Positions 2,937 through 48,152 of a stretch of DNA of 64,000 bases are shown here, piece by piece. Each line of letters starts with the position of its first letter. Position 1 is the stretch's first letter. The translations under genes were made by a program, and so were the position numbers. Under the pieces are notes generated by a model. It did no database searches. It was not told the origin of the DNA and saw only the letters and a program-made list of their open reading frames with translations. The stretch is from an uncultured Verrucomicrobiae bacterium (lineage in GTDB: Bacteria; Verrucomicrobiota; Verrucomicrobiia; Limisphaerales; UBA11358): contig CAVWJH010000001.1 in NCBI GenBank assembly GCA_963755455.1, positions 146,864 through 210,863 on the forward strand, given 5' to 3'.

Positions 2937-3269
2937 ATGATTCGCAAAGAACTCGTCGCCGCCTCGGCTGAACCGTTGATTTTGTCGCTGCTCGCAAAGG
3001 GCGAGAGTTACGGTTACGCCATCATCCAGGAAGTCAAGGCGCGCTCGGACGGCAAATTGAACTGGACGGACGGGATGCTTTACCCAGTGCTGCACCGGAT
3101 GGAACATCGGGGCTTGATCAAATCACGCTGGGCGGAAAGCGAAACCGGGCGGAAGCGGAAATATTACTCGCTCAAAAAAGACGGCAAAACGGCGATGGCC
3201 AAACACCACGAACAATGGTCGCTGGTTCATTCCGTTTTGGCCGGATTGAAAAAGGAACAATATGTTTGA
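2937..3269 (+). CDS. PadR family transcriptional regulator
   Basis: LILSLLAKGESYGYAIIQEVKARSDGKLNWTDGMLYPVLHRMEHRGLIKSRW...GRKRKYYSLKKDG is a canonical PadR winged helix. Its stop overlaps the next ATG (ATGTTTGA). Confidence 0.9.
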   Translation: MIRKELVAASAEPLILSLLAKGESYGYAIIQEVKARSDGKLNWTDGMLYPVLHRMEHRGLIKSRWAESETGRKRKYYSLKKDGKTAMAKHHEQWSLVHSVLAGLKKEQYV

Positions 3270-3913
3270 CCTTGAAAAATCCATCGCGGACTGGCGAAAC
3301 CAAATGCTCGCCGCCGGAATCAAAACGCCCGTGCCGCTGGAAGAGTTGGAAATTCATCTGCGCGAAGAAATCGAGCGGCAAATGCAATCGGGGTTGAGTG
3401 CGCAACGGGCGTGCGACGTCGCCACCAGAAAAAATTGGCGGCGCATCCGAACTAAAAAAGGAATTCAAGAAAACAGCCGATCCGTTGGATATGTGGCTCG
3501 TGAAACGAATGGGAATCGCCTGTGGCGCCTTCTCGCTGTTATTTTCAATGTGGATCCTTTTTTTCCTTTTCACCGATGAAATAAGTTTCATCACGAAAAT
3601 CTGCGGCCTGGCCGCTGTTGCCGCCGCCGGATTAAGCTGGAGATACAGCCATACGTTTCTTCCGGTAATCCGTCGTCGGTGGATCCGGGCGGCGATCGGA
3701 GGACTGTGTTGTCTTGGCGGTATTGTTTGGATTCGGCTTTTTTGCATCCATTTAGCCCCCGATTTGCTGGTGCGGGCGTTCGAAACCGCCACCATGCGCG
3801 GTTGGTTTTTAGTTTTGTTTCTGTGGGCGTGGAGCGTGGTCGCCATGTTTGGCGGAATTGCATTTGGATTGGAAAAGGCCGCGCGCGGGAAAGACACCGT
3901 GACGGTTTCATAA
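3262..3913 (+). pseudogene. PadR-associated membrane protein (N-terminal MFDLEKSIADWRNQMLAAGIK helix plus multi-TM C-terminus); one frameshift at an A6 run near 3425
   Basis: ORF 3262.. and ORF 3398..3913 join as ...SAQRACDVATRK|IGGASELKKEFKK..., parallel to the intact paralog (AFEMAALQIGQADVLKTEFVK). The C-terminus is hydrophobic. Confidence 0.6.
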
Positions 3914-3924
3914 AACGAAACAAT

Positions 3925-4644
3925 ATGTTTGACCTTGAAAAATCCATCGCGGACTGGCGAAACCAAATGCTCGCCGCCGGAATCAAAACACCCGTGCCGC
4001 TGGAAGAGTTGGAAATTCATTTGCGCGAAAATATCGAGCAGCAGATGCAATCAGGCGCAAATGAGCAACGAGCTTTTGAAATGGCTGCCTTGCAAATTGG
4101 TCAAGCCGATGTCTTGAAAACGGAATTTGTAAAAGCTGGCGGAGAAATTCCCGAAAGATTGAAGCAGTTCTTTTTTACCCTCGCAGGCACTCCAAACTAT
4201 CAACTCGCTACTAATATGAATACGACCAATTCAAACATCGAACCGCGCTGGGCAACTTATGCCAAGGCTGGCACCTTCCTTTTTCCTACGGTTTTTCTAT
4301 GGCTTTTAACCGTTGTCTTTGTTTTGCCAAAGGCGAATGAAATTTGTTCAGTGGCGGGCACAACTGTTTTTAATTTTGCGCAGCCTGTTCCTGCCATATT
4401 AAGAGTTTGGGCTACAACTGGCCAGACCTTGGTTTTTCTAACGAGCCACGGTTTTTTAATCGGCGGCGCAATCGTCTTGGCGTTCATTTTGTTAGAACGG
4501 TATTTCAGCCAGTGGCCACGCTATCGCCGGACGGCAATTGGCATTGTGGTTTTTCTTTTGAACGCGGTCGTTCTTCTTTCGCTGACCCTGATGATTATTT
4601 CGATTCTCGACGCAGCGCCAGCTTTGTATCATCATGCCCATTAA
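3925..4644 (+). CDS. PadR-associated membrane protein, tandem paralog of 3262..3913
   Basis: ATG at 3925. The first ~100 nt are nearly identical to 3262-3360. The C-terminal half holds several hydrophobic segments (FLFPTVFLWLLTVVFVL, FLIGGAIVLAFILL, IGIVVFLLNAVVLLSLTLMIISIL). Confidence 0.65.
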   Translation: MFDLEKSIADWRNQMLAAGIKTPVPLEELEIHLRENIEQQMQSGANEQRAFEMAALQIGQADVLKTEFVKAGGEIPERLKQFFFTLAGTPNYQLATNMNTTNSNIEPRWATYAKAGTFLFPTVFLWLLTVVFVLPKANEICSVAGTTVFNFAQPVPAILRVWATTGQTLVFLTSHGFLIGGAIVLAFILLERYFSQWPRYRRTAIGIVVFLLNAVVLLSLTLMIISILDAAPALYHHAH

Positions 4645-4664
4645 CTGATGAAGGTTGACCGCGC

Positions 4665-4714
4665 GCCTCCAGAATTTTTTTCAATTCCTCCGCCGCCCTG
4701 CCGCCGAAACCGGC
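4665..4714. repeat. Degenerate duplicate of the uvrC 3' end (distal copy)
   Basis: Hand alignment with 5208-5257 gives 44/50 identical. The minus-strand translation AGFGGRAAEELKKILEAR compares with PGFGGKAAEELKKFLEARI* of the real uvrC. Confidence 0.7.
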
Positions 4715-4748: not shown

Positions 4749-4946
4749 ATGAGTTTTGAGCAGCTCAAACGCGAAGTGACGGCATTGAATGACCGCGAGC
4801 GGGCGGAGTTGATTCGCTACACGCTTCAACTACGTCACGAGCACGACGCGGAATATCGCCGCGAAGTCACCGAAAGTTTGAACGACCGCGACAAATCGCA
4901 CTGGCTCACGCCGGAAGAATTAGAGCGCCGCCTCGACAACAATTAA
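4749..4946 (+). CDS. Putative antitoxin (small helical addiction-module component)
   Basis: 65-aa ORF MSFEQLKREVTALNDRERAELIRYTLQL...LTPEELERRLDNN, 4 nt upstream of a RelE/ParE-like ORF. Confidence 0.5.
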   Translation: MSFEQLKREVTALNDRERAELIRYTLQLRHEHDAEYRREVTESLNDRDKSHWLTPEELERRLDNN

Positions 4947-4950
4947 GGCC

Positions 4951-5201
4951 ATGCGGCCTTATGCCATTTACATCAACGAAGCAGCGTCGAGTTTCGTGCC
5001 GCGTTACGGTTCGCAACGCGAAAGAGTGATGAATTTTGTCCGTTCGCTTGCCGAAAGTCCAAACACGTCCGGGGATTTTCAGAAAAGGACGCCGCCGGCC
5101 GGATTGTCCAGGTAAAAATCATTGGCCGTTATGCGGTGACGTTTTGGGCCGACCACGCCATTTCAGAAATCAAAGTGACGCACATCAAGCCAGCGGATTA
5201 A
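4951..5201 (+). pseudogene. RelE/ParE-superfamily-like toxin, one frameshift near 5085-5100
   Basis: MRPYAIYINEAASSFVPRYGSQRERVMNFVRSLAESPNTSGDFQ then, after a frame change, KDAAGRIVQVKIIGRYAVTFWADHAISEIKVTHIKPAD*. Absent from the ORF track because both halves are under 60 aa. Its stop overlaps the convergent uvrC stop. Confidence 0.45.
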
Positions 5202-6813
5202 ATCCGTGCCTCCAAAAACTTTTTCAATTCCTCCGCCGCCTTGCCGCCGAAGCCGGGCACTTCGGAGATTTGTTCAACCGTCGCCAGTTGCAATCGCCGC
5301 ACCGAGCCGAATTTTTTCAGCAACGCCGATTTGCGCCGCTCGCCGATGCCGGGAAATTCGTCCAGCACGCTCTCGGAAATCCGCTTGAGCCGCAACTGCG
5401 CGTTGTAGGAATTCGCCACGCGATGCGATTCGTCGCGGATGCGTTGCAACAATTTCACCGCCGGATGATCCAGTCCCAGCCGCAACGGTTCGCTTTTGCC
5501 CGGCAGATAAATTTCCTCAAATTCCTTGGCCAGCCCGATGACGGGAATTTTTTCGAGGCCGAGTTTTTCCAATTCAGCAACCGCCATGCCGAGCTGACCT
5601 TTGCCGCCGTCAATCAAAATCAAATCCGGCAGATTGGAATTGGCCGATGGAAATTGGGAAGTCTTGACCGGAATTCGCTGGCGAACTTTGCGGCTCGTTT
5701 CATTCAACGAGCGTTTGTAATTCCTCCGGCACAGCGTGACCGTCGTCGTCATTCTTTGTTTTTTGGGTTGGCGCGACGCTTTCATTCAGCAGCCGTGAAT
5801 AACGCCGCCGCACGACTTCCGCCATGCTCGCAAAATCGTCCTGGCCTTCGACGGTTTTGATTTTGAAGCGACGATAATTCGCGCGGTCGGGCCGGCCATT
5901 TTTGAAACTCACCAGCGACGCGACGGCGAACGTGCCGCTGATGTTGGAAATGTCAAAGCCTTCAATGCGCTGCGGCGGCGCCGGCAAATTCAGAACTTTC
6001 GCGAGTTGCGCCAAATCATTTTGCGGCTGGCACATTGCCCGGCAACGAATACGGAATGCGCGCAAATTTTTCCGTTTTCTTCCAAGTGTCTTTCAAGTCG
6101 CGAACCAAGTCGCGCAGGCTCGCGGCTTTTTCAAAATCCTGCGCCGCCGCCGCCTTTTTCATTTCGCCTTCGAGCTGTTCCTGCATTTCGCGGCATTGGC
6201 CTTCAAGAAAACCGCACGCGGCCTTGACCTGTTCGAGATATTGCTCGCGCGAAACATTTCCGACGCACGGCGCGGTGCAGTATTTCAGATGCGCGTAAAG
6301 GCAATGTTTGTAATCGCTCTCGCCCGGCGTGAACACGCGGCAGCCGCGCAGATTGAATTGCCGTTGCGCGAGCGTGACGACGTTCCGCGCCGCCGTCGCG
6401 TTGACGAACGGCCCGAAATAGCGCGCGCCGTCGTCTTTTTTGAAACGCGCAAAAGAAAAATTCGGGATCGGGTCGTTCAGATTCACTTTCAACATCAAAA
6501 ACCGTTTGTCGTCGCGGAAGCTGATGTTGTAGCGCGGCTTGAATTCCTTGATGAGTTTGCTTTCGAGCAGGAGCGCCTCGGGTTCGCTGCGGACGACGTG
6601 GAAATCGAAATCGTGAATCGCCTCGACGAGCGCGTTGAATTTCAAATCCCAGCCCATGCGCCGCGACGATTGAAAATACTGGCTGACGCGTTTGCGCAGA
6701 TTGAGCGCCTTGCCGACGTAAATGACCGTGCCGAAGCGGTCGCGGTGCAGATACACGCCCGGCTTGTGCGGCAACGCGCTGAATTTTTTGCGGATGGCTT
6801 CGGTCACAGGCAT
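5198..6813 (-). pseudogene. uvrC: Excinuclease ABC subunit C, two frame disruptions (near 6040 and 5760)
   Basis: GVYLHRDRFGTVIYVGKALNLRKRVSQYF (GIY-YIG), UVR-domain-like [43 protein letters not shown] and a C-terminal (HhH)2 GIGERRKSALLKKFGS...ISEVPGFGGKAAEEL. Confidence 0.9.
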
Positions 6814-7749: not shown

Positions 7750-8330
7750 GAGGAATTTAACACATCTTGCCGCTGGCAGTAAATCTTCGATTCTTTGAAC
7801 CTGAAGGCTTGAACGCGCGCGGTTTGCTTGGAAATTTTTTTGGCCGGGCGCGCCGGCAAATTTGTGAAATCGCTGGCCGATACATGAAAACGATTTAGCC
7901 ACAGATGAAACACGGATTGAACACGGATTTTTGAAATCATTTTGCGATGGACGTTTGGGGCGATTGGCGGTTGAATTTTTTGTCGCGCGAAGGACGCGAA
8001 GGCGGCGAAGTCCGTAGGAGCGGAATCATCAGTGAAAGAATTAACGCAAAGACGCCAAGACGCAATGAGCGCAAAGCAAAAATTCCTTGCGACTTCGCGC
8101 CTTTGCGTCTTTGCGTTGAAAATTTCCCCGCCGAATATGCCGCCCCGACGGGGCTGAAATTTTATTTTGGTTTTGGTTCTACAAATATGCCGCGCCGACG
8201 GCGCTGGGGACGAACGCCGTGCCAAAATCATTTTGCGTTGGACGTTTGGGGGGAGCGCGCGCGTCTCGCGTGCGGATGCGGGCGTCGCGCCCGGAACATT
8301 GTTGGACAAATTAGTTTTGGGAACGGGTTC
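7750..8330. repeat. REP-rich intergenic region with at least four repeat families
   Basis: TTAGCCACAGATGAAACACGGATT (recurs at 23446). AATCATTTTGCG-TGGACGTTTGGGG at 7934 and 8224. Hairpin AACGCAAAGACGC.../...GCGTCTTTGCGTT at 8041-8117. AATATGCCGC-CCGACGG-GCTG at 8134 and 8184. GGGAGCGCGCGCGTCTCGCGTG (reverse copy near 52805). Confidence 0.55.
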
Positions 8331-8679: not shown

Positions 8680-9000
8680 ACCCGGAACGTCAAAAATGGG
8701 CGGCAACAGCGTAAAATTTTGCGGAGGAACGGCTTGATTGCCGTTGGCCAGCCTAAAAACGGCGGTGCAATGCCCAAAAACACCGGGGGAAAGCGAAAAA
8801 TGGCCGGGGGAAATGGATAATTGCGCGGGGGAACACCAATTGTCCGGAGGGAAAGCGATAATTGGGCGGTGGAAATGGGAAATTGCCCGGGGGAAAGCGT
8901 CCGATGCGCGGGGGAACCGGATAATTGTGCGGGGAACGTCCCAAATCTGCGGGGGAAAAGGCGCGGTGGCGGGGGACAACCGGAAATCATCACGTCCAGC
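8680..9000. repeat. Degenerate tandem array, about 15-17 units of 20-22 bp (consensus roughly CGGGGGAAANNGNNAATTGNG)
   Basis: Units read by eye, e.g. cgggggaaagcgaaaaatggc / cgggggaaatggataattgcg / cgggggaacaccaattgtc / cggagggaaagcgataattggg / cggtggaaatgggaaattgcc / cgggggaaagcgtccgatgcg / cgggggaaccggataattgtg. Confidence 0.6.
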
Positions 9001-9053
9001 CACCGGAATGAAGCGGCATCCGCACGGGACATTCCGCTTTTACTTGAGAAAAT

Positions 9054-9125
9054 AATTCTGCTGCTTCTCGCTGACGGGCATTCCAAGTTTTTCCATCACG
9101 GCCAGCATATCTTCCAAGATTTTGC
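9054..9125. repeat. Degenerate duplicate of the udg 3' end (distal copy)
   Basis: Hand alignment with 9856-9927 gives 65/72 identical. The minus-strand frame gives [27 protein letters not shown], versus [28 protein letters not shown] in the real gene. Confidence 0.75.
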
Positions 9126-9197: not shown

Positions 9198-9428
9198 ATG
9201 AGCTATCTCACGCTGGAAGTGGAGATTGACCACGGAAAAGTGGCCGCGAAAGAGCCGTCGAAACTGCCGGAAAAGGCCAGCGGCCTGCTCACAATTTTCC
9301 AGCCGGAAACTGCGGAGGCCGCCAGGTTCACGCCGCTCCAGGCGCTGGACGCCCTGCAAAAACATCTGCGCCTCGACGCCGCGCACGCCGCAGACTGGAT
9401 GGCGACCGTGCGCGAAGCGAGACGTTAG
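9198..9428 (+). CDS. Putative antitoxin paired with the downstream PIN toxin
   Basis: 76-aa ORF ending 20 nt upstream of a PIN-domain ORF. No family recognised. Confidence 0.5.
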   Translation: MSYLTLEVEIDHGKVAAKEPSKLPEKASGLLTIFQPETAEAARFTPLQALDALQKHLRLDAAHAADWMATVREARR

Positions 9429-9448
9429 CCGCGCGAAATGTTCGGAGC

Positions 9449-9820
9449 ATGATTCATTTCGACACTAATTGTCTGATTCAAACCGCCATCGCCGGATCGT
9501 TCGCGCATGAACGATTTCGCGCGTGGGCGTCTGCGCGGGAAAATTTCAACGTCAGTAGCGTCGCATGGGCGGAATTTTTGTGTGGGCCGCTGGATGCCAC
9601 CGCCGAATCCATCGCGCGGCAGATTTTTCCAAATCCCGAACCGCTGCTTCCGGCTGACGCCACGCTCGCGGCAAAATTATTCAACCAGACCGGACGCCGT
9701 TCCCGAAGTCTGGCGGATTGCATGATCGCGGCGGTGGCAATTCGTTGCGGCGCAAAACTGGCGACAATCAACGCGGCGGATTTTCAGCCGTTCGCCCAGC
9801 ATGGTTTGAATTTGGCTTGA
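9449..9820 (+). CDS. vapC: PIN domain toxin (VapC-like)
   Basis: [10 protein letters not shown]...[10 protein letters not shown]...[26 protein letters not shown] has the PIN acidic-residue pattern and the typical C-terminal motif. Confidence 0.8.
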
Positions 9821-9838: not shown

Positions 9839-10760
9839 TCACGCCTTCAAAAAGAAATTCCGCTGCTTCTCGCTGATGGGCATTTCGAGTTTTTCCATCA
9901 CGGCCAGCATGTCTTCCCAGACTTTGCGCTTCTCGCTCATCGCCTGGTTGCGCAGCAGATACGCCGGATGATACGTCGGCATGAGCGGCGTGCCGCGATA
10001 CGTCTGCCAGTTGCCGCGCAGCTTCGTGATGCCGACGGTCTTGCCAAGCAAACCTTCCACCGCCGTCGCGCCGAGCGCGACGAGAACTTTCGGGCCGGAT
10101 CAAATCAATCTGCTCGTGCAGATACGGAATGCACGTCGCCATTTCGTCGGGCGTCGGCTTGCGGTTGCCGGCGGACTGGCCGGGCGTGTCGGGCCGGCAT
10201 TTCAAAATGTTGGCGATGTAAACATCCGCGCGCGAAAGTCCGGTGGCCTGGATGATTTTCGTGAGCAATTGTCCGGCGCGGCCGACGAACGGTTCGCCCT
10301 GCTCGTCTTCATCCGCGCCCGGCGCTTCGCCGACGAACATCAGTTGCGCGTCAATGCTGCCGACGCCGAACACGACGTTCTTGCGCGACGACGCGAGGTG
10401 CGGGCATTTCACGCAGGACAAGGCGCGCTTTCGCAATTCGGCGAAGGCGGCGGCTTTTTCGGGCGAAGAACTGATGATTTGAGATTTGAGATTTTGAATT
10501 TCAGATGTTGGCGCGGTGGACGGAGGCGTGGCGGCGATTTTTTTTGCGGGCATGGAAATTGTGGTTTGAGTTTTAGAAGCGGGTGCGGCGGACGTTTTCT
10601 CAATTTCAGGTTTGAAATTTGAAATTTGAAATTTCGGCGCCGCCTGCGCAAGCGCGCGGAGCGTTTCTTTCGAGACGGCGACATTTCGCACGCCGCGCGA
10701 TTTCAATTCTTCGAGATGATGGATTGTCGCGTCGAGCAGTTCGTTGTAAGCAACGGCCAT
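9839..10760 (-). pseudogene. udg: Family 4 uracil-DNA glycosylase with a ~110-aa N-terminal extension; one frameshift near 10085
   Basis: [51 protein letters not shown]...ANILKCRP...IDLIRP then a frame change to ...[37 protein letters not shown]. Confidence 0.85.
10475..10636. repeat. Two heptamer-periodic arrays inside the udg N-terminal extension (10475-10506 and 10603-10636)
   Basis: gatttgagatttgagattttgaatttcag and aatttcaggtttgaaatttgaaatttgaaatttcg, translated in frame as [11 protein letters not shown] and [13 protein letters not shown]. Confidence 0.75.
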
Positions 10761-18200: not shown

Positions 18201-19102
18201 TTAAAACTTCGTCAGCTTTTCCAGTTCCTTCACGCGCTTTTCGATGTCGGCGCGTTTGATCTTGGTCGTGCGCGTTCAGGCCGAATCCTTCGCAGCAGAA
18301 CGACGCGGTGACGCTGCCGTAAATCATCGCGCGCCGGATGTTCGCGTCAATCGCGCCCTTGGCCGTCGCCAGATAATCCCATCATGCCGCCGACGAACGA
18401 ATCGCCCGCGCCGGTCGGGTCCACGACCTTGTGCAGCGGATACGCCGGGCAGATGAAAAATCCCTTCGGCCCGGACAAGATCGAGCCGTGCGAACCTTTT
18501 TTGATGATGACGTATTTCGGGCCGAGCTTGTGGATTTTTTTCAGCGCGGCGAAGACGTTGTCTTCCTTCGTCAGCTGATGCGCCTCGCTGTCGTTCAGCA
18601 CAAAGCCGTCAATGCGCGGCAGCAGTTTCAGCAAATCGGCGAGCGCGATGTTCAGCCACAAATCCATCGAGTCGGCCACGACGAATTTCGGCTTCTTCAT
18701 CTGGTCGAGCACGCGATGCTGGAGCGCGGGCGCGATGTTGCCGAGCAGCACGAACTGGCGAGTTTTGATACGACTGCGGCAGCGTCGGCGAAAAAGTTTC
18801 GATCACGCCGAGTTCGGTCGCAGCGTGCGGCGGTTGTTCATGTTCAATTCGTATTCGCCCGACCAGTGAAAAGTTTTGCCCGGCAAAATCTGCAGACCTT
18901 CGAGATCAATTTTGTGCCGGCGATAAAGCTCGATGTATTTTTTCGGAAAATCCTCGCCGACGCCGCCGACCAGTTTCACCGGCGAAAAAAAACTCGCCGC
19001 GACCGCCGCGTGGCTGGCCGAGCCGCCGAGCAGGCGCGGATTTTCCGCCGTCGGAGTTTTGATGGAATCGAGTGCGGTGGTGCCGACAATTAAAACGCTC
19101 AT
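18201..19102 (-). pseudogene. PfkB-family carbohydrate kinase, at least 2-3 frame disruptions
   Basis: MSVLIVGTTALDSIKTP...GGSASHAA..., LNDSEAHQLT..., VIIKKGSHGS..., VVDPTGAGDSFVGG (PfkB signature), then a tail ...ADIEKRVKELEKLTKF* in another frame. Confidence 0.75.
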
Positions 19103-19646: not shown

Positions 19647-20145
19647 ATGGGCAAACGACGTGAAGCGCGCGAACGCGCGGTGCAATTTCTGTTTCAGCAC
19701 GACCTGAACCCGCCGGAAAATCTTGAACTGGAACTGGCGCACGTTCTGGAATTCCCAGCGCGCCGCCGCCATCGAGGACGAAAAAGGCGCGGCGCATTGG
19801 GGCGAAGAAATCGAACTGCCGCCGCCGACCGCCGAGGAGGCCGAGACGCGCCTGTTCGCCGAGCCGCTCATCCGCGGCGCGCTGGAACATCGCGACGCGA
19901 TTGACGAAAAAATCAAAAGCCACGCGAAGAACTGGGATTTTCACCGCATCGCCGCCGTGGACCGCAACATCATGCGGCTGGCGATTTACGAAATGCTGCA
20001 TCGCGAGGACATTCCGCCCGTCGTCAGCATCAACGAGGCGGTGGACATCGCCAAAAAATTTTCCACGCAGGACAGCGGCAAATTCGTGAACGGCATTCTC
20101 GACAAAATCCGCGGCGAAATTCTCCGGCCGGCGCGCAACTGTGAA
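19647..20145 (+). pseudogene. nusB: Transcription antitermination factor NusB, one frameshift near 19740; no stop before the next gene in the current frame
   Basis: MGKRREARERAVQFLFQHDL... then ...[50 protein letters not shown]. Confidence 0.8.
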
Positions 20146-20951
20146 ATGAAATTCGCCGATTTACATCTGCACACGCAGTTTTCCGACGGCACGTTCACGC
20201 CGGAGGAACTGGTCGGTGCACGGCGCAGAAGCTCGGCTTGGCGGCATCGCGCTGACCGACCACGACACGGTCGAAGGCTGCGCGCGCACGGCGGCGGCGT
20301 GCGCGGCGGTGAAGATGGAATTCATTCCCGGCACGGAACTCACCGCCGAACACGACGACACGGAAGTCCACATCTCTCGGCTATTTTCTCGACACGCAAA
20401 ACCAGAAATTGCTGGCGGAAATCGCCAAGTTCCAAGTCCGTCCGGCAGAACCGCATCCACGAAATGGTCGCGGCGCATGAACAAGCTCGGCGTGCCGCTC
20501 AAGGCCGAATCGGTTTTCGCGCTGGCCAATTGCAAATCGCCCGGCCGCCCGCACGTCGCGCGCGCGCTGGTGAAGGCCAGACTCGATCGGCAATCTGGAC
20601 GAGGCGTTTGAGCGGTTTCTGAAAAAAGGCCGGCCCGCGTGGGTGCCCAAGACCAAAATGTCCGCGCTCGAAGGCATCGAATTGATTCATCAGGCCGGCG
20701 GCCTCGCGGTCATGGCGCATCCCGGCTTGAACCGCACGGACGACATCATTCCCGACCTCGTGGACGCCGGGCTGGACGGCATCGAATGTTTTCACACGAA
20801 ACATTCCACCGTGATGTCCGAGCGTTATCTGGAAATTGCGGAAAAATATGATCTGCTCGTCACCGGCGGCAGCGACTGCCACGGCTTCAGCAAAAACAAG
20901 CCGCTCATCGGCACGGTGAAACTGCCTTACGAACACGTTGAAAGACTGTAA
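20146..20951 (+). pseudogene. PHP domain phosphoesterase (TrpH/YciV-like), at least 5 frame disruptions
   Basis: [23 protein letters not shown] / [12 protein letters not shown]...FIPGTELT / [13 protein letters not shown] / RQNRIHEMV / [12 protein letters not shown] / LIHQAGGLAVMAHP...GIECFH...VTGGSDCHG are spread over all three frames. Confidence 0.8.
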
Positions 20952-21037: not shown

Positions 21038-21953
21038 ATGGGACTTTTTGCCAAATTCAAAGCCGGCCTCGCCAAGACGCACGCCAAGCTCACGCACGAA
21101 ATCAAGCGCATCGTCACGCGCTCGCCCAAGCTGACCGCCGAGTCGCTGGAAGAAATCGAGCACGCGCTCATCGCCGCCGATCTGGGCATGGCGATGACCA
21201 CGCAAATCATCGCCGCCGTCAAGAAAGCTTACGAAACGCAGGGCGCGCGGGACTGGACTATCTCGCCATCGCGCGCGCGGAAATTGAGAAAAGTCTTTCC
21301 GCGAACAAACCCGAAGTCTGCGCGAAATTCCCGGCGGCACCTGCGTCGTTTCCATCGTCGGCGTGAACGGCACGGGCAAGACCACGACGAGCGCGAAGCT
21401 CGCGCATTATTTTCAGGCGCAGAAAAAATCCGTGCTGCTCGCCGCGTGCGACACGTTTCGCGCGGCGGCGATTGAGCAGATCAAATTGTGGGGCACGCGC
21501 CTCAAAGTCGAAGTCATCGCCGGCAGCTTACGGCGCGGACGCGGCGTCCGTGGCGCACGACGCCGTCACCGCCGCGCAGGCGCGCAAGGCGGATTATCTG
21601 TTCATTGACACGGCGGGACGCTTGCACACGAAGCACAATTTGATGCAGGAATTGCAGAAGTTGCATCGCGTCATCGGCAAGCAACTCGCGGGCGCGCCGC
21701 ACGAAGTGCTGCTGGTGCTCGACGCGCAGCGACCGGCATGAACGCGCTGAACCAGGCGCGCGAATTTCACAAGGCCGTGCCGCTCACCGGCCTCATCGTG
21801 ACCAAGCTCGACGGCACGAGCAAAGGCGGCATGGTCGTGGCGATTCAGAAGGAACTCGGCCTGCCCATCAAATTCATCGGCCTCGGCGAGCAGCCGGACG
21901 ATTTGCAGCCCTTCGACGCGAAACAATTCGCGCAGGCGTTGTTTGAGGAATGA
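21038..21953 (+). pseudogene. ftsY: Signal recognition particle receptor FtsY, 4 frame disruptions
   Basis: MGLFAKFKAGLAKT...LEEIEHALIAADLGM / [19 protein letters not shown]...[15 protein letters not shown] / [16 protein letters not shown] / TGLIVTKLDGTSKGG...IKFIGLGE. Confidence 0.85.
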
Positions 21954-22027
21954 AATTATTCACTTAATACCAAGGCACAAAGATTGTAGAAACATGGGTT
22001 TTCCTTTATCACAAAAGAGAAATAATT

Positions 22028-23385
22028 ATGTTCAAACACCTAACCCGGCCTGGGCTGATCACATTGTTGGCGTCCGTGTCATTTTCCGCGACCAGTTTTG
22101 GGGCGAATCCCTTCATCACCAGCATTTACACCGCCGATCCGTCCGCTCATGTGTGGGCGGATGGCCGGCTGTATGTCTATCCCTCGCGCGACATGGATCC
22201 GCCACGCGGCTGCGACCTGATGGACCGGTATCATGTGTTCTCAACGGACAACATGGTGGATTGGCGGGACGAAGGGGAAATTCTACGGGCGAGCCAGGTG
22301 CTCGTGGGGCAGGCCGGAAGGCGGTTTCATGTGGGCGCCGGATTGCGCGTATCGCGACGGAACATATTATTATTATTTCCCGCATCCGAGCGACACGAAA
22401 TGGAACGACTCCTGGAAAATTGGCGTGGCGACGAGCGAAAAGCCGGCGAGCGATTTCAAAGCCGGCGGTTACATCGAAGGCCTTGGCGGTTTCGCGATGA
22501 TTGATCCGGCGGTGTTCATGGATGACGACGGCCACGCTTATATTTATTTCGGCGGCGGCGGCCATTGCGCGGGCGTGAAATTGAAACCGGACATGACGGA
22601 AATTGGACGGAACGGTCCAGCCGATGACCGGCCTGGAGGATTTTCACGAAGCCACCTGGGTTTTCAAACGCAACGGCATTTATTACCTGACTTACGCGGA
22701 CAATCATCCTCGACACAACGAGATGCGCTATGCCACCAGCACCAACGCGCTCGGTCCGTGGACCTACAAGGGAGTCTATCTGGAAGGGACCGACTGCGAC
22801 ACCACGCACGGCTCCGTGGTGGAATACAAAGGTCAATGGTATCAGTTCTATCACAACTGCAGCATTTCCAGGCAGGGCAATCTGCGTTCGATATGCGTGG
22901 ATAAAATAAATTTCAATGATGACGGGACAATACAGATGATCGTGCAAACCAAGACCGGCGTGCCGTCCGTCGGCCCGGCTCCGGTGCCCAATCCGAACAC
23001 GGTCAAATATGTGGCCGGGAATGCCAGCGTCACCAATGGTGCGACCATCGAAAGCGACAGCGCGGCCTCCAGCGGCAAGAGCGTGCAGAATCTCAATTTC
23101 ACCAATTCCTGTTTGCAGTTTGACAATGTGGACGGCGGCGAAAATGGCGGCCGGGCCACGATTGACATCTATTACGCCACCGCCGAAAAGTCCGAGCTCA
23201 GGTTGAGCGTGAACGACGCCGATTATTCGTTCATCAACACGCTTTCCACCGGCGGCTGGACCAATTACACCGGCCATTCGTATCTGACCGTTCCATTGAA
23301 CTCCGGCAAAGCCAACACCATCAAGCTCACCGGCGGCCACGGCGGGGTCAACGTGGATTACATCACCGTCAGCCCGCTGCCGTGA
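22028..23385 (+). pseudogene. Secreted glycoside hydrolase family 43-like enzyme with C-terminal CBM6/35-like domain, 2 frame disruptions
   Basis: Signal peptide, then NPFITSIYTADPSAHVWADGRLYVYPSRD, WAPDCAYRDGTYYYYF, IDPAVFMDDDGHAYIYFGG, HEATWVFKRNGIYYLTYA and HGSVVEYKGQWYQFYH. The C-terminus reads ...GGWTNYTGHSYLTVPLNSGKANTIKLTG...VDYITV. Confidence 0.8.
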
Positions 23386-23401
23386 CGCGCTGCCGGCCGG
23401 C

Positions 23402-23445
23402 GCGAAGCAATTTGCGCAGGCGTTGTTTGAGGAATAAAAATTATT
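23402..23445. repeat. Duplicate of the ftsY 3' end (distal copy)
   Basis: gcgaagcaatttgcgcaggcgttgtttgaggaataaaaattatt versus 21918-21960 gcgaaacaattcgcgcaggcgttgtttgaggaatgaaattatt. It still reads AKQFAQALFEE*. The two coding differences seen are synonymous, and the stop codon differs (TGA vs TAA). Confidence 0.7.
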
Positions 23446-23511
23446 TTAGCCACAGATGAAACACAGATTTTGGAAGTTGTAACGTCGTGAATCAATTGCA
23501 CTAAAAGTAAA

Positions 23512-23673
23512 ATGAAAGCGATGGAACAAATCCAAAATCTTCTTCGCTCTGCGTTGAAGTCAAAGCCTGTAATTGATTGGGGAAAACTTGATTGGGAGAA
23601 ACTTCAGGCAGCTTACAAGAAAAACAACCCCAAGCCTGACACCGGACCGCGAGAAACCATTTTGATTTTTTAA
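23512..23673 (+). CDS. Small hypothetical protein (53 aa), low GC
   Basis: ATG..TAA ORF MKAMEQIQNLLRSALKSKPVIDWGKLDWEKLQAAYKKNNPKPDTGPRETILIF. Not in the ORF track because it is under 60 aa. No family recognised. Confidence 0.25.
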   Translation: MKAMEQIQNLLRSALKSKPVIDWGKLDWEKLQAAYKKNNPKPDTGPRETILIF

Positions 23674-23686
23674 TCCGTTTCAATTT

Positions 23687-24841
23687 GTGGCAAAAAAAGA
23701 TTTCCAATTCATGCGGCTCGCCCTCCGGCTCGCCCGGCGCGGCTATGGCGCAACGTCACCGAATCCGATGGTCGGCGCGGTGCTGGTGAAAGGCGGAAAA
23801 ATCATCGGGCGCGGCTGGCATCGGCGCGCGGGTTTGCCGCACGCGGAAATCGAGGCGCTCCGCGACGCGCAAAAGCGCGGCCACAATCCGCGCGGCGCGA
23901 CGCTTTACGTCACGCTCGAACCGTGCTGCACGCACGGCCGCACGCCGCCTTGCACGGACGCCATCATTGCCGCCGGAATAAAAAAAGTTGTCGTTGGCGC
24001 GACTGATCCGAATCCGAAACACGCAGGCAAAGGGTTTAAGATTTTGCAGCGCGCGGGAATTGAAGTCGTTCACGGAATTTTGGGCGGCGAATGCGCGAAG
24101 CTGAACGAGGCTTTCAATCACTGGATTGTCCACCGCACGCCGTTCGTCACCGTGAAGGCAGCAATGACATTGGACGGCAAAATTGCGACGGCCAGTGGCG
24201 AATCCAAATGGATCACCGGCGAAAAAGCCCGCGCGCAAGGAATGAAATTGCGGCAGGGCGCGGACGCGATTCTCGTCGGCGTGAATACAATTTTGGCGGA
24301 CGACCCGTCGTTGACGTTTCGGCCAGTCCAAAGCCCGAAGTCCAAAGTCCAAAGCCGGAAGCCGGTTCGACGAATTATTTTGGATTCAATGGCGCGGACG
24401 CCGTTAAACGCAAAAGTCGTCAGCGATGAATTTCCGGCGCTGACGACAATTGTTGTCGGCGAACGCGCGCCGAAAAAGCGCGTGGCAACATTGGCGAAAC
24501 TGACAAATGTTCTTGTTGCACCTACAACGAAAAACTTGTCACTTGTCACTCGTCACTCGTCACTCGATTTGCGCTGGCTGTTGGAAAAACTCGGTTCGGA
24601 AAACGTGACGAGCCTGCTGGTCGAAGGCGGCGGCGAGGTGAACGCGTCGTTTCTGCTCGGCGGTTTTGCGCAGCGCGTCGCATTTTTCTATGCGCCGAAA
24701 ATTCTGGGCGCACGCGACTCGCGAAAAGCCGTCGCGGGCGAAGGCGTGAAAGATCCGACTGACGCGATTCAATTGCGCGAAGTCGAATGGCGTCAGCTTG
24801 GCGAGGATTTGCTGCTGACGGCGTTGGTGGTTGCAAGTTGA
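23687..24841 (+). CDS. ribD: Bifunctional riboflavin biosynthesis protein RibD (pyrimidine deaminase / uracil reductase)
   Basis: MRLALRLARRGYGATSPNPMVGAVLV...HAEIEAL...TLEPCCTHGRTPPC (CMP/dCMP deaminase zinc site), then ...VTVKAAMTLDGKIAT...GESKWITG...ILVGVNTILADDPSLT...LLVEGGG. Start is GTG 23687 or ATG 23711. Confidence 0.9.
   Translation: MAKKDFQFMRLALRLARRGYGATSPNPMVGAVLVKGGKIIGRGWHRRAGLPHAEIEALRDAQKRGHNPRGATLYVTLEPCCTHGRTPPCTDAIIAAGIKKVVVGATDPNPKHAGKGFKILQRAGIEVVHGILGGECAKLNEAFNHWIVHRTPFVTVKAAMTLDGKIATASGESKWITGEKARAQGMKLRQGADAILVGVNTILADDPSLTFRPVQSPKSKVQSRKPVRRIILDSMARTPLNAKVVSDEFPALTTIVVGERAPKKRVATLAKLTNVLVAPTTKNLSLVTRHSSLDLRWLLEKLGSENVTSLLVEGGGEVNASFLLGGFAQRVAFFYAPKILGARDSRKAVAGEGVKDPTDAIQLREVEWRQLGEDLLLTALVVAS
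24325..24365. repeat. In-frame heptamer array inside ribD (AGTCCAA/AGCCCGA/AGCCGGA, about 6 units)
   Basis: agtccaaagcccgaagtccaaagtccaaagccggaagccgg encodes PVQSPKSKVQSRKP between LTFR and VRRIILDS. Confidence 0.8.
24535..24567. repeat. In-frame heptamer array inside ribD (CTTGTCA/CTCGTCA, about 5 units)
   Basis: cttgtcacttgtcactcgtcactcgtcactcga encodes NLSLVTRHSS just before LDLRWLLEKLG. The heptamer family matches the pilin-associated hairpins. Confidence 0.8.
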
Positions 24842-25759: not shown

Positions 25760-25844
25760 TGGTGCGCGCGAGAGGACTTGAACCTCCAATCCTTGCGGAA
25801 CCAGATCCTAAGTCTGGCGTGTCTGCCAATTCCACCACGCGCGC
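25760..25844 (-). tRNA. tRNA-Leu (anticodon UAG), class II long variable arm, CCA encoded
   Basis: Reverse complement GCGCGCGTGGTGGAATTGGCAGACACGCCAGACTTAGGATCTGGTTCCGCAAGGATTGGAGGTTCAAGTCCTCTCGCGCGCACCA. The 7-bp acceptor stem pairs, the anticodon stem is CCAGA/TCTGG with loop CTTAGGA, and the T-loop is TTCAAGT. Confidence 0.9.
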
Positions 25845-26846: not shown

Positions 26847-27083
26847 ATGCAATTGACATTGCCGGAAACCGTCGAAGCAGCGCTCTCGCCGCGCAAGGCC
26901 GCGTTGCATCTGGCGATCGGCCTGTTTGTCTCCGAGGAGGCGACGCTCGGCCAGGCGGCGGAAATCGCCGGGCTGACGCAGGCGGCGTTCCAGAAGGAAC
27001 TCGGCGCGCGGCACATTTCCATCCACTACGGCATGGATGAACTGGCCGAGGACTTGAAGGCGGTTGAATCTTTCCATCACTGA
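26847..27083 (+). CDS. UPF0175 family antitoxin-like protein
   Basis: LHLAIGLFVSEEATLGQAAEIAGLTQAAFQKELGARHISIHYG. Its stop overlaps the next ATG. Confidence 0.75.
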   Translation: MQLTLPETVEAALSPRKAALHLAIGLFVSEEATLGQAAEIAGLTQAAFQKELGARHISIHYGMDELAEDLKAVESFHH

Positions 27084-27544
27084 TGATTGTCGTTTCGGAC
27101 ACCTCGCCCATCACGGCTTTGCTGGCCGTGGAACAGGCGGAATTATTGCAACAACTTTTCGGAGAAGTCGTCGTTCCAGACGCGGTGAAAACAGAACTGC
27201 TGCGGACGCATCCAAAGTTGCCAGTTTGGTTGCACGTCCAACCGCTGCAAAATTCCGCCAAGGCGAATCTTTACGCGCGCAGCGTGGATCGCGGCGAGGC
27301 GCAGGCGATTGCGCTGGCCGAGGAACTGCGCGCCGACCATTTGTTGATTGACGAACGCAAGGGCCGGCGGCTGGCGCAGCAACAAGGTTTGCCGGTTCTG
27401 GGATTGCTCGGCGTCGTCCTGCTGGCGAGGCGGGCAAAATTAATTTCTTCCGCGCGGGCGTTGCTGGAAGAACTGGATCGCGAGGCGGGAATTTATCTGG
27501 CTGAAGAATTGAAGGACGCGGCTTTGAAAACAATTGGCGAATAA
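27083..27544 (+). CDS. DUF3368 (PIN-like) toxin-like protein
   Basis: MIVVSDTSPITALLAVEQAELLQQLFGEVVVPDAV...DRGEAQAIALAEELRADHLLIDERKGRRLA...GLPVLGLLGVVLLA. Confidence 0.75.
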   Translation: MIVVSDTSPITALLAVEQAELLQQLFGEVVVPDAVKTELLRTHPKLPVWLHVQPLQNSAKANLYARSVDRGEAQAIALAEELRADHLLIDERKGRRLAQQQGLPVLGLLGVVLLARRAKLISSARALLEELDREAGIYLAEELKDAALKTIGE

Positions 27545-42259: not shown

Positions 42260-42269
42260 TTATATGAAA

Positions 42270-42299
42270 AGTGACAAGTGGCGAGTGACAAGTGGCGAG
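42270..42299. repeat. Heptamer array (GTGACAA/GTGGCGA) upstream of the first pseudopilin
   Basis: agtgacaagtggcgagtgacaagtggcgag. Confidence 0.75.
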
Positions 42300-42302
42300 A
42301 AA

Positions 42303-43011
42303 ATGATGAGCAACAAGCGGCAAGTGATGCGCCTGAACAAAGCTCATCACTCCGGCTTTCACCCTCATTGAACTGCTCGTCGTCATCTCCATCATCGGCG
42401 TGCTGGCCGCGTTCACCCTCACGGTTTTGAAATCGGTGAAAAGGCACCAATACATTTCCCACACGCAGGCGGAAATGGGGCTGCTGGAAACCGCCATCCA
42501 GCGCTACCACGACGCCTACGGATTTTATCCGCCGGGCAATGGCAGCGGCGATCCACGGGTCAACCAGCTTTATTACGAACTGGAAGGGACGACTTTTAAT
42601 CCGGCAAATAATTCATACACAACCCTGGATGGCGGCTTGCAAATCAGCTCCAACAACCTGAACAAGGCGTTTGGCGTCGGCGGCTTCATCAATTGCACCA
42701 GGCCCGGCTCCGCTGAAGACGCTCATTCCGCCCAAAATTTTCTGCCCGGCTTGAAACCAAGGCAATATAATGCGGTTACAAACCCGTCGCCTGGCGGTCC
42801 GCTCGTCACCATCCTCACCGGTTCGGTTGGCGGGCCGGATCAAAATTACAAGCCGTTCGGTGCGTCTGGCCTGAATCCCTGGCGCTACGCTTGTCCCGGA
42901 ACGAACAACCCCAGCTCGTATGATTTGTGGATTCAACTGGTGATCAATGGGCAAACCAACCTCATCTGCAACTGGAGCGGGCAGGTGCGGATCAACAGCC
43001 CGCTGCCGTGA
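42303..43011 (+). pseudogene. Prepilin-type N-terminal cleavage/methylation domain protein (pseudopilin 1), one frameshift in a T-run near 42357
   Basis: MMSNKRQVMRLNKAHHSG|FTLIELLVVISIIGVLAAFTL... is restored by removing one T from ggctttcacc (compare ggcttcaccctcatcgaactg at 43325). Confidence 0.75.
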
Positions 43012-43037
43012 AAATTTTTATGCGCGACGATAAAAAA

Positions 43038-43126
43038 AGTGACAAGTGGCAAGTGACAAGTGACGGGAAAATGGTGCGCCGGGGAAAAAACCCGTCACTC
43101 GTCACTCGATCACTCGATCACTTGAC
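43038..43126. repeat. Heptamer-periodic hairpin (GTGACAA/GTGGCAA arm and CACTCGT/CACTCGA arm)
   Basis: agtgacaagtggcaagtgacaagtgacggg ... cccgtcactcgtcactcgatcactcgatcacttgac. Confidence 0.85.
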
Positions 43127-47199: not shown

Positions 47200-48152
47200 A
47201 AACAAAAACAACAGTGGCAAGTGGCAAGTGGCAAGTGGCAAGAGCCTCGTCGCGAGGATTTTGTCTTGTCACTCGTCACACGTCACTTGTCACCCGCTCC
47301 GCCTTCACTCTCATCGAGGTGATGGTGGCGGTGGCGCTGCTCTCGCTCATCGTCATCGCGCTGATGGCGGTGTTCAACAGCACGCAGGCGGCGTTCCGCG
47401 CGGGCGTCACGCAGGCGGGCATTCTGGAGGGCGGGCGCGCGACGATGGATTTGATCTCGCAGGATTTGAAGGAGATGGCGCCGTCGGACGGTGTCAGCAA
47501 TGGCGTGGTGAATTTTTACGCCTACGTCGTCAGTTCGCCCGGCCCGCTTGTCCAGACGCTGACCGCCAGCAGCCGGTCGCGGACAAACGTCCTGGAAACA
47601 ATTTTTATCTTGAGCCGCGACAACCAGACTTGGATCGGCACGGGCTATGTCGTGGACACTTCGGCCACGGCGTCCATCAATCCGCTCTACCGTTTCACCC
47701 CCGCCGATTTGCCGCCGCGTCCAGCCCCGTGGCAGATTTTTACCAATTTTCTCGCCAACAGCACGCTTCCGATTTCGCAAAACAACACCAACATGAGCCA
47801 TCTGCTGGACGGCGTGGTGGATTTTCGCGTGCGCGCCTTTGACACCAACGGCGGGCGGATGAACAATCAAGTTGTTTTTACCAGCGGTCAGTTCACCACC
47901 AACGAAAATGTTTATTATCTGCCGTCCGGTTCCGGCTCCGGCTTTGGCGAGACGGGCTTTGTCATGTTCAGCAACACGCTGCCCGCGTCCGTGGAGATTG
48001 ACATGGCCACGCTCGAAGACCGCACCTTGCAGCGCGCCGAATCGCTGCCGAACAACCTGCGCACATCCTATTTGCAGGGTCAGGCAGGCAACGTCCAGGT
48101 TTTCCGCCAGAGCGTTTCCATTCCCAATGTTGACCCGTCCGCCTATCAATGA
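47196..48152 (+). CDS. Pseudopilin 5 (GspJ/PulJ-like) with an unusually long leader
   Basis: GTG overlaps the upstream stop (GTGA). MKTKTTVASGKWQVARASSRGFCLVTRHTSLVTRSA|FTLIEVMVAVALLSLIVIALMAVFNSTQAAFR. Confidence 0.8.
   Translation: MKTKTTVASGKWQVARASSRGFCLVTRHTSLVTRSAFTLIEVMVAVALLSLIVIALMAVFNSTQAAFRAGVTQAGILEGGRATMDLISQDLKEMAPSDGVSNGVVNFYAYVVSSPGPLVQTLTASSRSRTNVLETIFILSRDNQTWIGTGYVVDTSATASINPLYRFTPADLPPRPAPWQIFTNFLANSTLPISQNNTNMSHLLDGVVDFRVRAFDTNGGRMNNQVVFTSGQFTTNENVYYLPSGSGSGFGETGFVMFSNTLPASVEIDMATLEDRTLQRAESLPNNLRTSYLQGQAGNVQVFRQSVSIPNVDPSAYQ
47213..47293. repeat. Heptamer-periodic hairpin (GTGGCAA x4 arm / TTGTCAC-type arm) lying inside the pseudopilin 5 leader-coding region
   Basis: agtggcaagtggcaagtggcaagtggcaag agcctcgtcgcgagg attttgtcttgtcactcgtcacacgtcacttgtcacc. 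Confidence 0.85.

Follow-up and report, generated by a model that had tools for sequence, protein, structure and literature searches.

Partial copies of the ftsY 3′ end bracket accessory genes downstream of ftsY in Limisphaerales

Phage 21 and the element e14 insert in the 3′ end of a housekeeping gene, icd of Escherichia coli, and supply an alternative end with mostly synonymous differences. In staphylococci, the staphylococcal cassette chromosome element SCCmec and pseudo-SCC islands occupy the 3′ end of rlmH (orfX), with a core of ~15–18 bp, Ccr serine recombinases and many members without a recombinase. SCC islands of this type are treated in PMC10581047 and PMC11144489. Here we analysed a stretch of 64,000 nucleotides (the window; positions 146,864 to 210,863 of the forward strand of contig CAVWJH010000001.1, assembly GCA_963755455.1) from an uncultured Verrucomicrobiae bacterium of the order Limisphaerales. 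In it the 3′ end of ftsY, the essential gene of the signal recognition particle receptor GTPase, is found a second time, as a short partial copy (a relic) past an adjoining gene for a secreted GH43 glycoside hydrolase, and such relics recur downstream of ftsY in other Limisphaerales. As at icd, the gene is kept intact and a displaced native end is left as a partial copy on the far side. Unlike phage 21 and e14, which span 10–40 kb, carry their own tyrosine integrase and use a fixed crossover, the inserts here measure 0.5–4.5 kb, lack an integrase, have variable limits and occur as serial cassettes. The use of one conserved gene end as a docking site and the tandem arrays separated by gene-end repeats are shared with SCC at rlmH, whereas the repeats here are 24–176 nt long and variable, and no Ccr-like enzyme is evident.

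The ssrA islands of Dehalococcoides form by serial integration at the 3′ end of an RNA gene, each with a site-specific integrase and a short constant repeat. Copies of the gene end likewise separate the serial inserts described here, which differ in lacking an integrase, in using a protein gene and in the variable length of the repeat; tandem ssrA-specific genomic islands in Dehalococcoides are the subject of one report (PMC3146451). Streptococcal cis-mobilizable elements (CIMEs) are att-flanked, have no recombination module of their own, lie in tandem at housekeeping 3′ ends and can be moved in trans (PMC5704250, PMC7563491). Tandem accretion at a gene 3′ end without a recombination module is common to both, but CIMEs derive from recognisable integrative and conjugative elements (ICEs) or integrative and mobilizable elements (IMEs) and need a related integrase, and no such elements or integrases were seen here. 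With integrons and clusters of attC sites lacking integron-integrases (CALINs) the locus shares small, co-oriented cassettes of a single gene or a toxin–antitoxin (TA) pair, a site-like repeat a few nucleotides past the stop codon with a conserved 3′ end, and the newest cassette in proximal position. Unlike in integrons, the repeat is a host gene end and not an attC hairpin, IntI and attI are missing, the cassettes have their own upstream regions and the repeats extend into homologous flanks. In homology-facilitated illegitimate recombination, or by a Campbell crossover during transformation or conjugation, a single homologous anchor captures foreign DNA (PMC3240628, PMC3410848). Here too no element-encoded enzyme is seen and any conserved gene serves, whereas the known cases come from laboratory selections and usually involve deletion of recipient DNA. 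We know of no description of a lineage-wide natural record of such capture with gene-end duplications and arrays. Additive flexible genomic islands lie by tRNA genes in Alteromonas and other marine bacteria (PMC4898812, PMC5217437); they resemble our locus as hot spots with varied small cassettes and repeated fragments of the target 3′ end, and differ in their tRNA target and usual integrase, the targets here being protein-coding and free of integrases. The architecture, 3′-end integration with restoration of the gene, is a known one, and the present case differs by its tiny integrase-less inserts, variable limits, many host genes and relics of 5′ ends, traits in which it resembles homology-facilitated capture.

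A second ftsY end past the GH43 gene

An earlier reading of the window from its letters alone had claimed that the ftsY end is duplicated past the GH43 gene, and this is borne out. In a gapped local alignment the direct repeat pairs 21914–21960 with 23398–23445, corresponding to ftsY −40 to +7 counted from the end of the stop codon, with 43 of the 47 aligned positions identical (91%) and a single 1-nt indel immediately 3′ of the stop; an ungapped repeat search pairs 21905–21955 with 23389–23439 (84% over 51 nt). A genome scan with the repaired FtsY protein yielded the ftsY neighbourhoods, up to 8 kb downstream, of 80 species-level genomes, all of them Limisphaerales (Verrucomicrobia subdivision 3) metagenome-assembled genomes whose FtsY is 83–94% identical in amino acids. 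Together with the window these make up 81 genomes, and labels such as L001 denote individual loci. An nhmmer profile of the last 120 nt of ftsY from the 81 genomes matches the distal copy at 23385–23437 with E = 3.5e-8 in 1.4 Mb, and a chance origin of this copy is excluded.

The gene itself (21038–21953, + strand; Pfam SRP54_N and SRP54, three-frame translation) stays intact, reading through the proximal copy (21914–21960, + strand; −40 to the TGA plus 7 nt, aattatt) to its TGA, so that the insert is flanked by copies of the gene's own 3′ end. The distal copy (23398–23445, + strand) begins 13 nt past the GH43 stop, in a frame other than that of GH43, and has the codons gcg aag caa ttt gcg cag gcg ttg ttt gag gaa TAA, translating as AKQFAQALFEE*. 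Its coding differences from the proximal copy (aaa/aag, ttc/ttt) are synonymous and the stop is changed from TGA to TAA, all as first read from the sequence, and Pfam agrees with the original calls of ftsY and of a GH43 gene with a carbohydrate-binding module. Between the copies lies the secreted GH43 glycoside hydrolase with a C-terminal CBM35-like module (22028–23385, + strand). It is preceded by a 67-nt spacer (21961–22027, + strand), which holds the motif CAAGGCACAAAGAT pointed out earlier and of which only the last ~30–35 nt are common to other GH43 loci in an alignment of four. At the junction on the other side (23386–23397, + strand) ~12–13 nt past the GH43 stop match other GH43 loci (the downstream sequences of L081, L041 and L001) before ftsY homology sets in, with a CG/GCG overlap at most as possible microhomology. 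The gene order is a PHP-domain gene (to 20951), ftsY, a 74-nt spacer, GH43, 12–13 nt, the ftsY-end copy, a repeat resembling repetitive extragenic palindromic (REP) sequences, a 53-aa open reading frame (ORF), ribD and ribE. Three frameshifts in ftsY and two in GH43 had to be bridged in this assembly.

The last 45 coding nt of the proximal copy recur unchanged at the ftsY ends of L003, L025 and L047, and L003 is the nearest relative of the window on the upstream flank in a rough neighbour-joining (NJ) tree. For the distal copy, all 33 coding nt agree with the ftsY end of L056, which belongs to a REP-bearing clade. All coding differences between the copies are synonymous and the distal relic is free of decay. 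By these matches the copies are two functional-type alleles brought together, not a fresh target-site duplication followed by decay. Target-site duplication by a transposon was considered and rejected, given repeat lengths of 24–176 nt, the match of each copy to a functional allele of another clade and the purely synonymous differences.

The distal copy is followed directly by the REP-like dispersed repeat TTAGCCACAGATGAAACACAGATT (23446–23469, + strand). The motif TTAGCCACAGATGAAACAC(AGATT) at 23446 is a real dispersed repeat, with a second copy at 7895 where none is expected. A motif beginning TTAGCCACRGAT... starts 9 nt past the intact ftsY stop in L041/L088, L050, L081 and L083, and 9 nt past the relics in the window, L056, L061, L082 and L084–L087. 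Because the same stop, 9 nt and REP follow intact ftsY in relatives, the right-hand REP is native flank of an ftsY end, outside the repeat, rather than a cassette edge. The left-hand motif CCAAGGCACAAAGAT has one other near-match only in the window, and REP similarity in the stretch past the proximal stop does not exceed that of shuffled sequence (p = 0.18–0.6). Extension of the repeat into a degenerate REP past the proximal stop was dropped, as the alignment score was not above shuffles (p 0.18 and 0.6). The sequence-only reading had placed a REP at both edges of the cassette; the right one is a genuine dispersed repeat but lies outside the duplication, and the left one is unsupported. Related terminal repeats at both cassette edges, as expected of a unit bounded by REPs or miniature inverted-repeat transposable elements, were not found.

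Members of the dispersed family were seen at 7895–7975, 8225–8254 and 23446–23469 of the window and also in L085 and L086. The form TTAGCCACRGATGAAACACGGATTGAACACGGATTTTTGAAATCATTTTGCGATGGACGTTTGGGG at 7895 matches sequence 3′ of the ftsY relic in L085 and L086, with its inner part found again at 8225, and the core of the family consists of tandem ~11-nt units (GAACACGGATT). Inverted REP-like motifs (23446–23469 and 23670–23695, the latter read by eye) flank the 53-aa ORF of the window (23512–23673, + strand), which has no Pfam match and no tblastn match in the 80 ftsY loci; in L082 (618–1740) such motifs flank a 1.1-kb segment with a minus-strand ORF. Segments between inverted REP-like motifs may represent a second kind of small mobile unit. 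Beyond them ribD (23687–24841, + strand; Pfam dCMP_cyt_deam_1 and RibD_C) forms the conserved right flank of the hot spot. In a test for a mosaic ribD that would mark the right-hand crossover, the 5′ third of ribD is 95.5% identical to that of L056 against 80% for the rest, the 5′ domain being the more conserved in all comparisons.

The repaired GH43 protein has 451 aa with Glyco_hydro_43 (E 6e-40) and CBM_35_2 (1e-6) domains, a signal-peptide-like N-terminus and 2734 homologues, the best at 89%. A GC or codon-usage deviation, which had been proposed as a check, is absent, since the gene (GC 0.566, GC3 0.71) is typical of the window (means 0.58 and 0.708). Orthologues with 82–89% identity occur beside ftsY in at least five other genomes, directly 3′ of it in L041/L088, L089 and L090, and a few kilobases further downstream of ftsY in L081 and L001. 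None of these loci has an ftsY relic past GH43, which is found in the window only. The homologous unit extends from ~30–35 nt before the ATG to ~13 nt past the stop, and its flanks are different in every genome. On the upstream-flank tree, again a rough NJ tree, GH43-bearing genomes fall in at least three separate places and L003 is without GH43, and GH43 is about as diverged as ftsY (87.4 vs 87.7% nt identity). GH43 is a long-standing, reshuffled tenant of the hot spot, because its orthologues adjoin ftsY elsewhere, its flanks vary and it is scattered on the tree; GH43 may be the older resident, and the segment of relic, REP and small ORF the imported part. The cassette reading holds in so far as the duplicated ftsY end brackets a discrete accessory segment, but GH43 as foreign cargo was not established. 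Conservation of the arrangement with both copies, which had been named as the mark of an ancient, non-mobile locus, is not what the relatives show: several share the adjacency of ftsY and GH43, but the second copy is confined to the window. Relics of the ribD 5′ end were observed just 5′ of GH43 in L081 (9462–9548, with the ribD upstream region) and L090 (~3110–3170), a mirror image of the ftsY 3′ relics, and full-length ribD was not found in the available DNA 3′ of GH43 in either locus.

Gene-end relics across Limisphaerales and at other genes

Searching the 81 genomes with the ftsY-end profile gave 81 native matches and, at E ≤ 0.05, 20 extra partial copies. Each of the extra copies is found 3′ of ftsY and in its orientation; the opposite strand gave none and the upstream side one weak match. 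Comparison of ftsY neighbourhoods among relatives, suggested with the original reading, thus revealed relics in 15 of the 81 species, one or two in each, with many different cargos. The relics reach the stop codon (profile positions 120–122) except in L009, where positions 51–111 are covered and the relic ends ~11 nt short. At the 5′ side they begin anywhere between −24 and −176. Homology between intact end and relic normally stops at most 7 nt past the stop codon and runs further where the flanks are alike (+7 in the window, +165 in L052 and +126 at ribD of L079), so that the right limit tracks flank homology and no constant core or crossover position was found among the relics. A pattern search of metagenome contigs for an ftsY end, 9 nt and the REP recovered seven more loci, of which two are intact ftsY ends and five are relics preceded by other DNA, including a ParE-type TA pair, a gene that by eye translates to a P-II-type protein, a pfkB-like gene and others. 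In one of these, L082 (1–650), a complete pfkB-like gene is followed by 8 nt, a 35-nt ftsY 3′ relic and the REP, placing an ftsY relic at a junction away from ftsY.

Upstream, PHP–ftsY is kept almost everywhere within a fixed nusB–PHP–ftsY block. Downstream, the gap between ftsY and ribD ranges from overlap to 7.7 kb, or ribD is not within 8 kb, and 432 ORFs fall into 297 protein clusters. The DNA 3′ of ftsY is a hypervariable hot spot of gene turnover in Limisphaerales. Third positions of the ftsY end are not unusually constrained, as the last 8 codons have an entropy of 0.60 against a gene mean of 0.93 (rank 17/296) and the whole C-terminal third is low; the idea of the ftsY end as an att-like constrained site was dropped on the same rank. 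Searches of the literature turned up neither an account of ftsY as an integration site nor a specific named system.

The cargo between ftsY and relics comprises GH43 (in the window), two different RelB/Phd–ParE TA pairs, a SulP–STAS–cNMP transporter, several proteins without a Pfam match and a gene that reads, by eye from its translation only, as a P-II-type protein. Up to three cassettes follow in series in L027, L032, L052, L061 and L064. Module A (cluster 5) occurs in six species, in each case with a relic behind it that begins at about −72; its place is immediately 3′ of ftsY in L014 and L043 and behind other cassettes and shorter relics in L032, L040, L052 and L064. The sequence past a relic in one genome can equal the sequence past intact ftsY in another, as for L032 relic 1 and L014, and for the L014 relic and L043. 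In L006 and L061 the homology of the TA1 unit extends precisely from the stop of ftsY to that of the relic. The nucleotide identity of the unit, 89–91% against 81.7% for ftsY of the same two genomes, suggests transfer, since the unit is more conserved than the gene beside it. TA1 alone is clearly more conserved than ftsY; divergence in most other modules equals or exceeds that of ftsY, and vertical descent with occasional exchange is enough for them. The cassettes are compact, with 45–70 nt of upstream sequence and the relic 1–30 nt past the last stop. In L032 a 17-nt filler separates cassette C from its relic, and the L032 copy of the module A relic has a 14-nt deletion, one documented case of trimming.

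The claim that the mechanism is not TA-specific was upheld, as the same pattern occurs at two further genes of the window, at ftsY in 15 of 81 species and with varied cargo. The 3′ end of uvrC (−59 to −7; 5205–5256, − strand) is repeated at 4662–4713 (52 nt, 88%), 484 nt downstream of the uvrC stop, and a two-gene TA-like cassette (4749–5200, + strand) lies between. We noted in this cassette a 65-aa ORF (4749–4946) and a frameshifted ORF ending at 5200–5202, its stop overlapping that of uvrC. The 3′ end of a uracil-DNA glycosylase (UDG)-family gene (−88 to −5; 9845–9927, − strand) is repeated at 9043–9125 (83 nt, 87%), 714 nt downstream, around a VapB/PIN (VapC) cassette (9198–9820, + strand). 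This relic, found by a repeat search of the window, still has an open reading frame, altered at several amino acids and ended by a stop of its own. Both TA cassettes are oriented opposite to their host gene. In a control-matched scan of 945 genes from all loci, in which the 3′ end was compared with downstream DNA and the controls were the 5′ end, mid-gene and the wrong side, 20 matches of a 3′ end downstream were obtained against 3–8 per control class, most control matches being tandem paralogues. Use of the ftsY site exceeds that of neighbouring genes ~30-fold. Other cases are a pfkB-like gene of L001 (−62 to −9; 4291–4343 repeated at 4909–4961, 556 nt downstream, around a 136-aa ORF), ribD of L079 (12272–13388; −55 to +126, 181 nt, 95% identity, 881 nt downstream, around a 113-aa ORF between ribD and ribE) and a further gene of L060 near 14990 with a 129-nt 3′-terminal repeat (−129 to 0) 668 nt downstream. 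The repeated ends at ftsY, uvrC, UDG, pfkB and ribD have no motif in common. The pattern is not sequence-specific, and besides the 3′ ends of these genes it affects the 5′ end of ribD.

A set of 227 representative downstream proteins was compared with Pfam and PHROGs, and XerD then served as query in tblastn and phmmer. Within 8 kb 3′ of ftsY, tyrosine recombinases were found at two of the 80 loci, L034, the one locus matched by tblastn, and, beyond ribD, L004, added by phmmer. The window has none by Pfam/PHROG or by tblastn with XerD, and its insert holds GH43 only; serine recombinases and DDE or HUH enzymes, screened only via Pfam/PHROG summaries, did not turn up. The XerD-like gene of L034 (3207–4175) lies 0.5 kb 3′ of ftsY, with 39% identity to E. 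coli XerD (an approximate value), and the contig ends 0.4 kb further on. IMG/VR contained no viral contigs carrying the ftsY end. An integron-like trait is present in the arrays of compact, co-oriented cassettes that each end in a repeat. As to IntI and attI, no tyrosine recombinase occurs in the window or adjoining ftsY in 79 of the 80 loci, and as to attC, inspection of the repeat by eye revealed only a 7-bp inverted repeat (CAAACAA...TTGTTTG), the repeat being ftsY coding sequence.

Explanations for the gene-end repeats

Any explanation has to account for the observed features, namely the repeat and the allelic difference of its copies, their recurrence with one polarity, the arrays, the lack of integrases and the occurrence at unrelated genes. 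We favour homology-driven insertion of DNA from related genomes, anchored on a conserved gene end, and give it roughly an even chance of being correct; that the repeat is a recombination scar at an ftsY hot spot, by which accessory genes enter without disrupting ftsY, we rate evenly balanced as well. Homology-driven capture is preferred because the repeat coincides with the shared homology, its copies represent different alleles, ends of several unrelated genes and the 5′ end of ribD are involved and integrases are missing. Incoming Limisphaerales DNA would bring its own copy of the ftsY end beside accessory genes, and the homology used would be the highly conserved last 24–180 nt of ftsY. Either a circularised fragment could enter through a single (Campbell-type) crossover at the resident ftsY end, or one side could cross over by homology while the other is joined illegitimately. 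The product would be intact ftsY, the accessory gene or genes, a displaced partial ftsY end and the older downstream DNA; repeated rounds would stack cassettes separated by relics, which could then act as portable homology in excision, reshuffling and transfer. We assume that host recombination functions are at work, because no recombinase travels with the cassette, and long repeats would be unstable, leaving only short ones (≤180 nt) to survive. What we infer is the intermediate (circular or one-sided), the enzymes and the side that is incoming. Homology ends where coding conservation ends and runs on where flanks are alike, as expected if the repeat is shared homology, and the native composition of GH43 fits exchange within the order.

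Several observations weigh against homology-driven capture. Relics of 24–41 nt are shorter than the usual need of RecA, so that trimming after insertion would be required, and we saw neither a circular form nor, within one population, a polymorphism of empty and filled sites. Every one of the 28 genes (17 clusters) that lie between ftsY and a relic has the orientation of ftsY, where the background is 47–72% (P about 0.004 or less); the last cassette stop is only 1–30 nt before the relic in ~10 cases; the terminal ~24 nt are kept, whatever the length, in all of the ~25 relics but that of L009; and the 5′ limits cluster near −41, −60 to −80 and −151 to −176, each near a YTCGRCG heptamer, an association found post hoc. 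Random fragment ends do not predict these four regularities, which are more like those of a dedicated cassette system, though selection and deletion could produce them. Such a site-specific system would resemble integrons, SCC or integrative mobile elements exploiting Xer (IMEX), with a recombinase acting in trans on a core in the last ~24 nt of ftsY and on analogous ends; we consider it unlikely. That each cassette carries the gene-end copy as its attachment site, excises as a circle, inserts by ftsY and builds arrays is similarly doubtful, although the compactness of the cassettes, the two- and three-cassette arrays with module A behind different newer cassettes (L032, L040, L052 and L064), the greater conservation of the TA1 unit than of ftsY and the ~30-fold preference for the ftsY site would all fit. 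Against it, repeats pass the stop where flanks are homologous, the uvrC, UDG, pfkB and ribD repeats have no motif in common with the ftsY end, relics of ribD 5′ ends exist, the TA cassettes run against their host gene at uvrC and UDG, no recombinase was found near any array save the XerD-like gene in L034, and the ftsY end shows no dyad-symmetric core beyond the 7-bp stem and unexceptional synonymous-site conservation. An undescribed Limisphaerales cassette-exchange system that uses housekeeping 3′ ends as docking sites with a trans-acting, possibly homology-guided recombinase, an integron analogue without attC and attI, we regard as rather unlikely.

Direct repeats of a 3′ end beside an intact gene are also the textbook signature of integrase-bearing elements (prophages, ICEs or IMEs), and the relics could be remnants of such elements that targeted the ftsY 3′ end, supplied a replacement end in the manner of phage 21 and e14 at icd, and were reduced by deletion to cargo and an attR-like relic. 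The variable 5′ limit and fixed 3′ limit mirror tRNA-targeting integrase classes, erosion of a relic by deletion was observed, and L034 has its XerD-like gene 0.5 kb past ftsY. We judge this origin improbable, as L034 is the one species of 80 with a recombinase between ftsY and the next conserved gene, no intact element was seen (up to 8 kb), viral contigs with the ftsY end are missing, the same small units recur in different contexts and many unrelated genes are affected. The ftsY–GH43 pair might be ancestral, with the relic left over from one ancient local duplication and no ongoing mobility. Such vertical inheritance would suit the GH43 neighbours in L041/L088, L089, L090, L081 and L001, the similar divergence of GH43 and ftsY and the native composition of GH43. 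It is more improbable still, given that the relic past GH43 is unique to the window, undecayed and an allele of another clade, that the flanks of GH43 differ in every genome, that GH43 genomes occupy at least three parts of the rough NJ flank tree while the nearest relative L003 lacks GH43, and that relics with other cargos are widespread. Finally, a noisy long-read assembly could have linearised two strain variants of the region into one contig, in keeping with the many frameshifts of the window and the different alleles of the copies. An artefact of this kind is very improbable indeed, since the same architecture occurs in ~20 independent assemblies (megahit, SPAdes and long-read), the 5′ ends of relics abut cassette DNA and not ftsY, and two other genes of the window show the same structure.

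If homology-driven capture is true, partial copies of gene ends would be a readable fossil record of how accessory genes (TA pairs, transporters, glycosidases) enter and stack without an element integrase, in an abundant and poorly studied phylum of soil and freshwater. As a signature, genome-wide searches could use any 3′ fragment of a core gene that keeps the orientation of the gene and lies hundreds to thousands of bases 3′ of it, so as to map hot spots, order insertions and identify donors. If a dedicated recombinase were involved instead, the cassette system would be new and on a par with integrons. In annotation, such short ORF-like fragments should be treated as relics, not genes.

Other features of the window

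Single-base frameshifts break conserved genes of the window, among them nusB/PHP (19723–20951), ftsY (21038–21953), GH43 (22028–23385) and pfkB (18204–19102). The contig looks like an unpolished, indel-prone long-read assembly, in which short ORF calls and homopolymer lengths are unreliable. A scan of 21800–23800 for promoters and terminators gave none above shuffle expectation. Rfam and ARAGORN searches of the window had a tRNA-Leu (25760–25844, − strand) as their sole match, with no FMN riboswitch or known RNA between the relic and ribD. An ftsY-like match at 26982–27067 (E 1e-4) was set aside as probably due to chance, as it lies inside a UPF0175 antitoxin gene and rests on a 15-nt identical run only; the gene belongs to a UPF0175/DUF3368 (PIN-like) TA pair at 26847–27544, 3′ of a LysM–TPR gene.

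Other repeats were also present in the window. Tandem paralogues 3′ of a PadR-like regulator share a 162-nt 5′ region that is 90% identical (3249–3410 and 3912–4073), a tandem duplication and not a cassette scar. Two arrays have a 21-nt periodicity, one intergenic with G-runs and A-rich sequence (8740–8934) and a longer one of ~16 units (52385–52718). Three paralogues of GspE/PilB/PilT-like ATPases at ~36–40 kb mark a region resembling type IV pilus or type II secretion loci, and the motif GTGACAAGTGGCGAGTGACAAGTGGC and its variants occur at 42262–42311, 43030–43079, 47205–47268 and 48153–48202, 5′ of genes with prepilin-type N-termini (FTLIELLVVI...).

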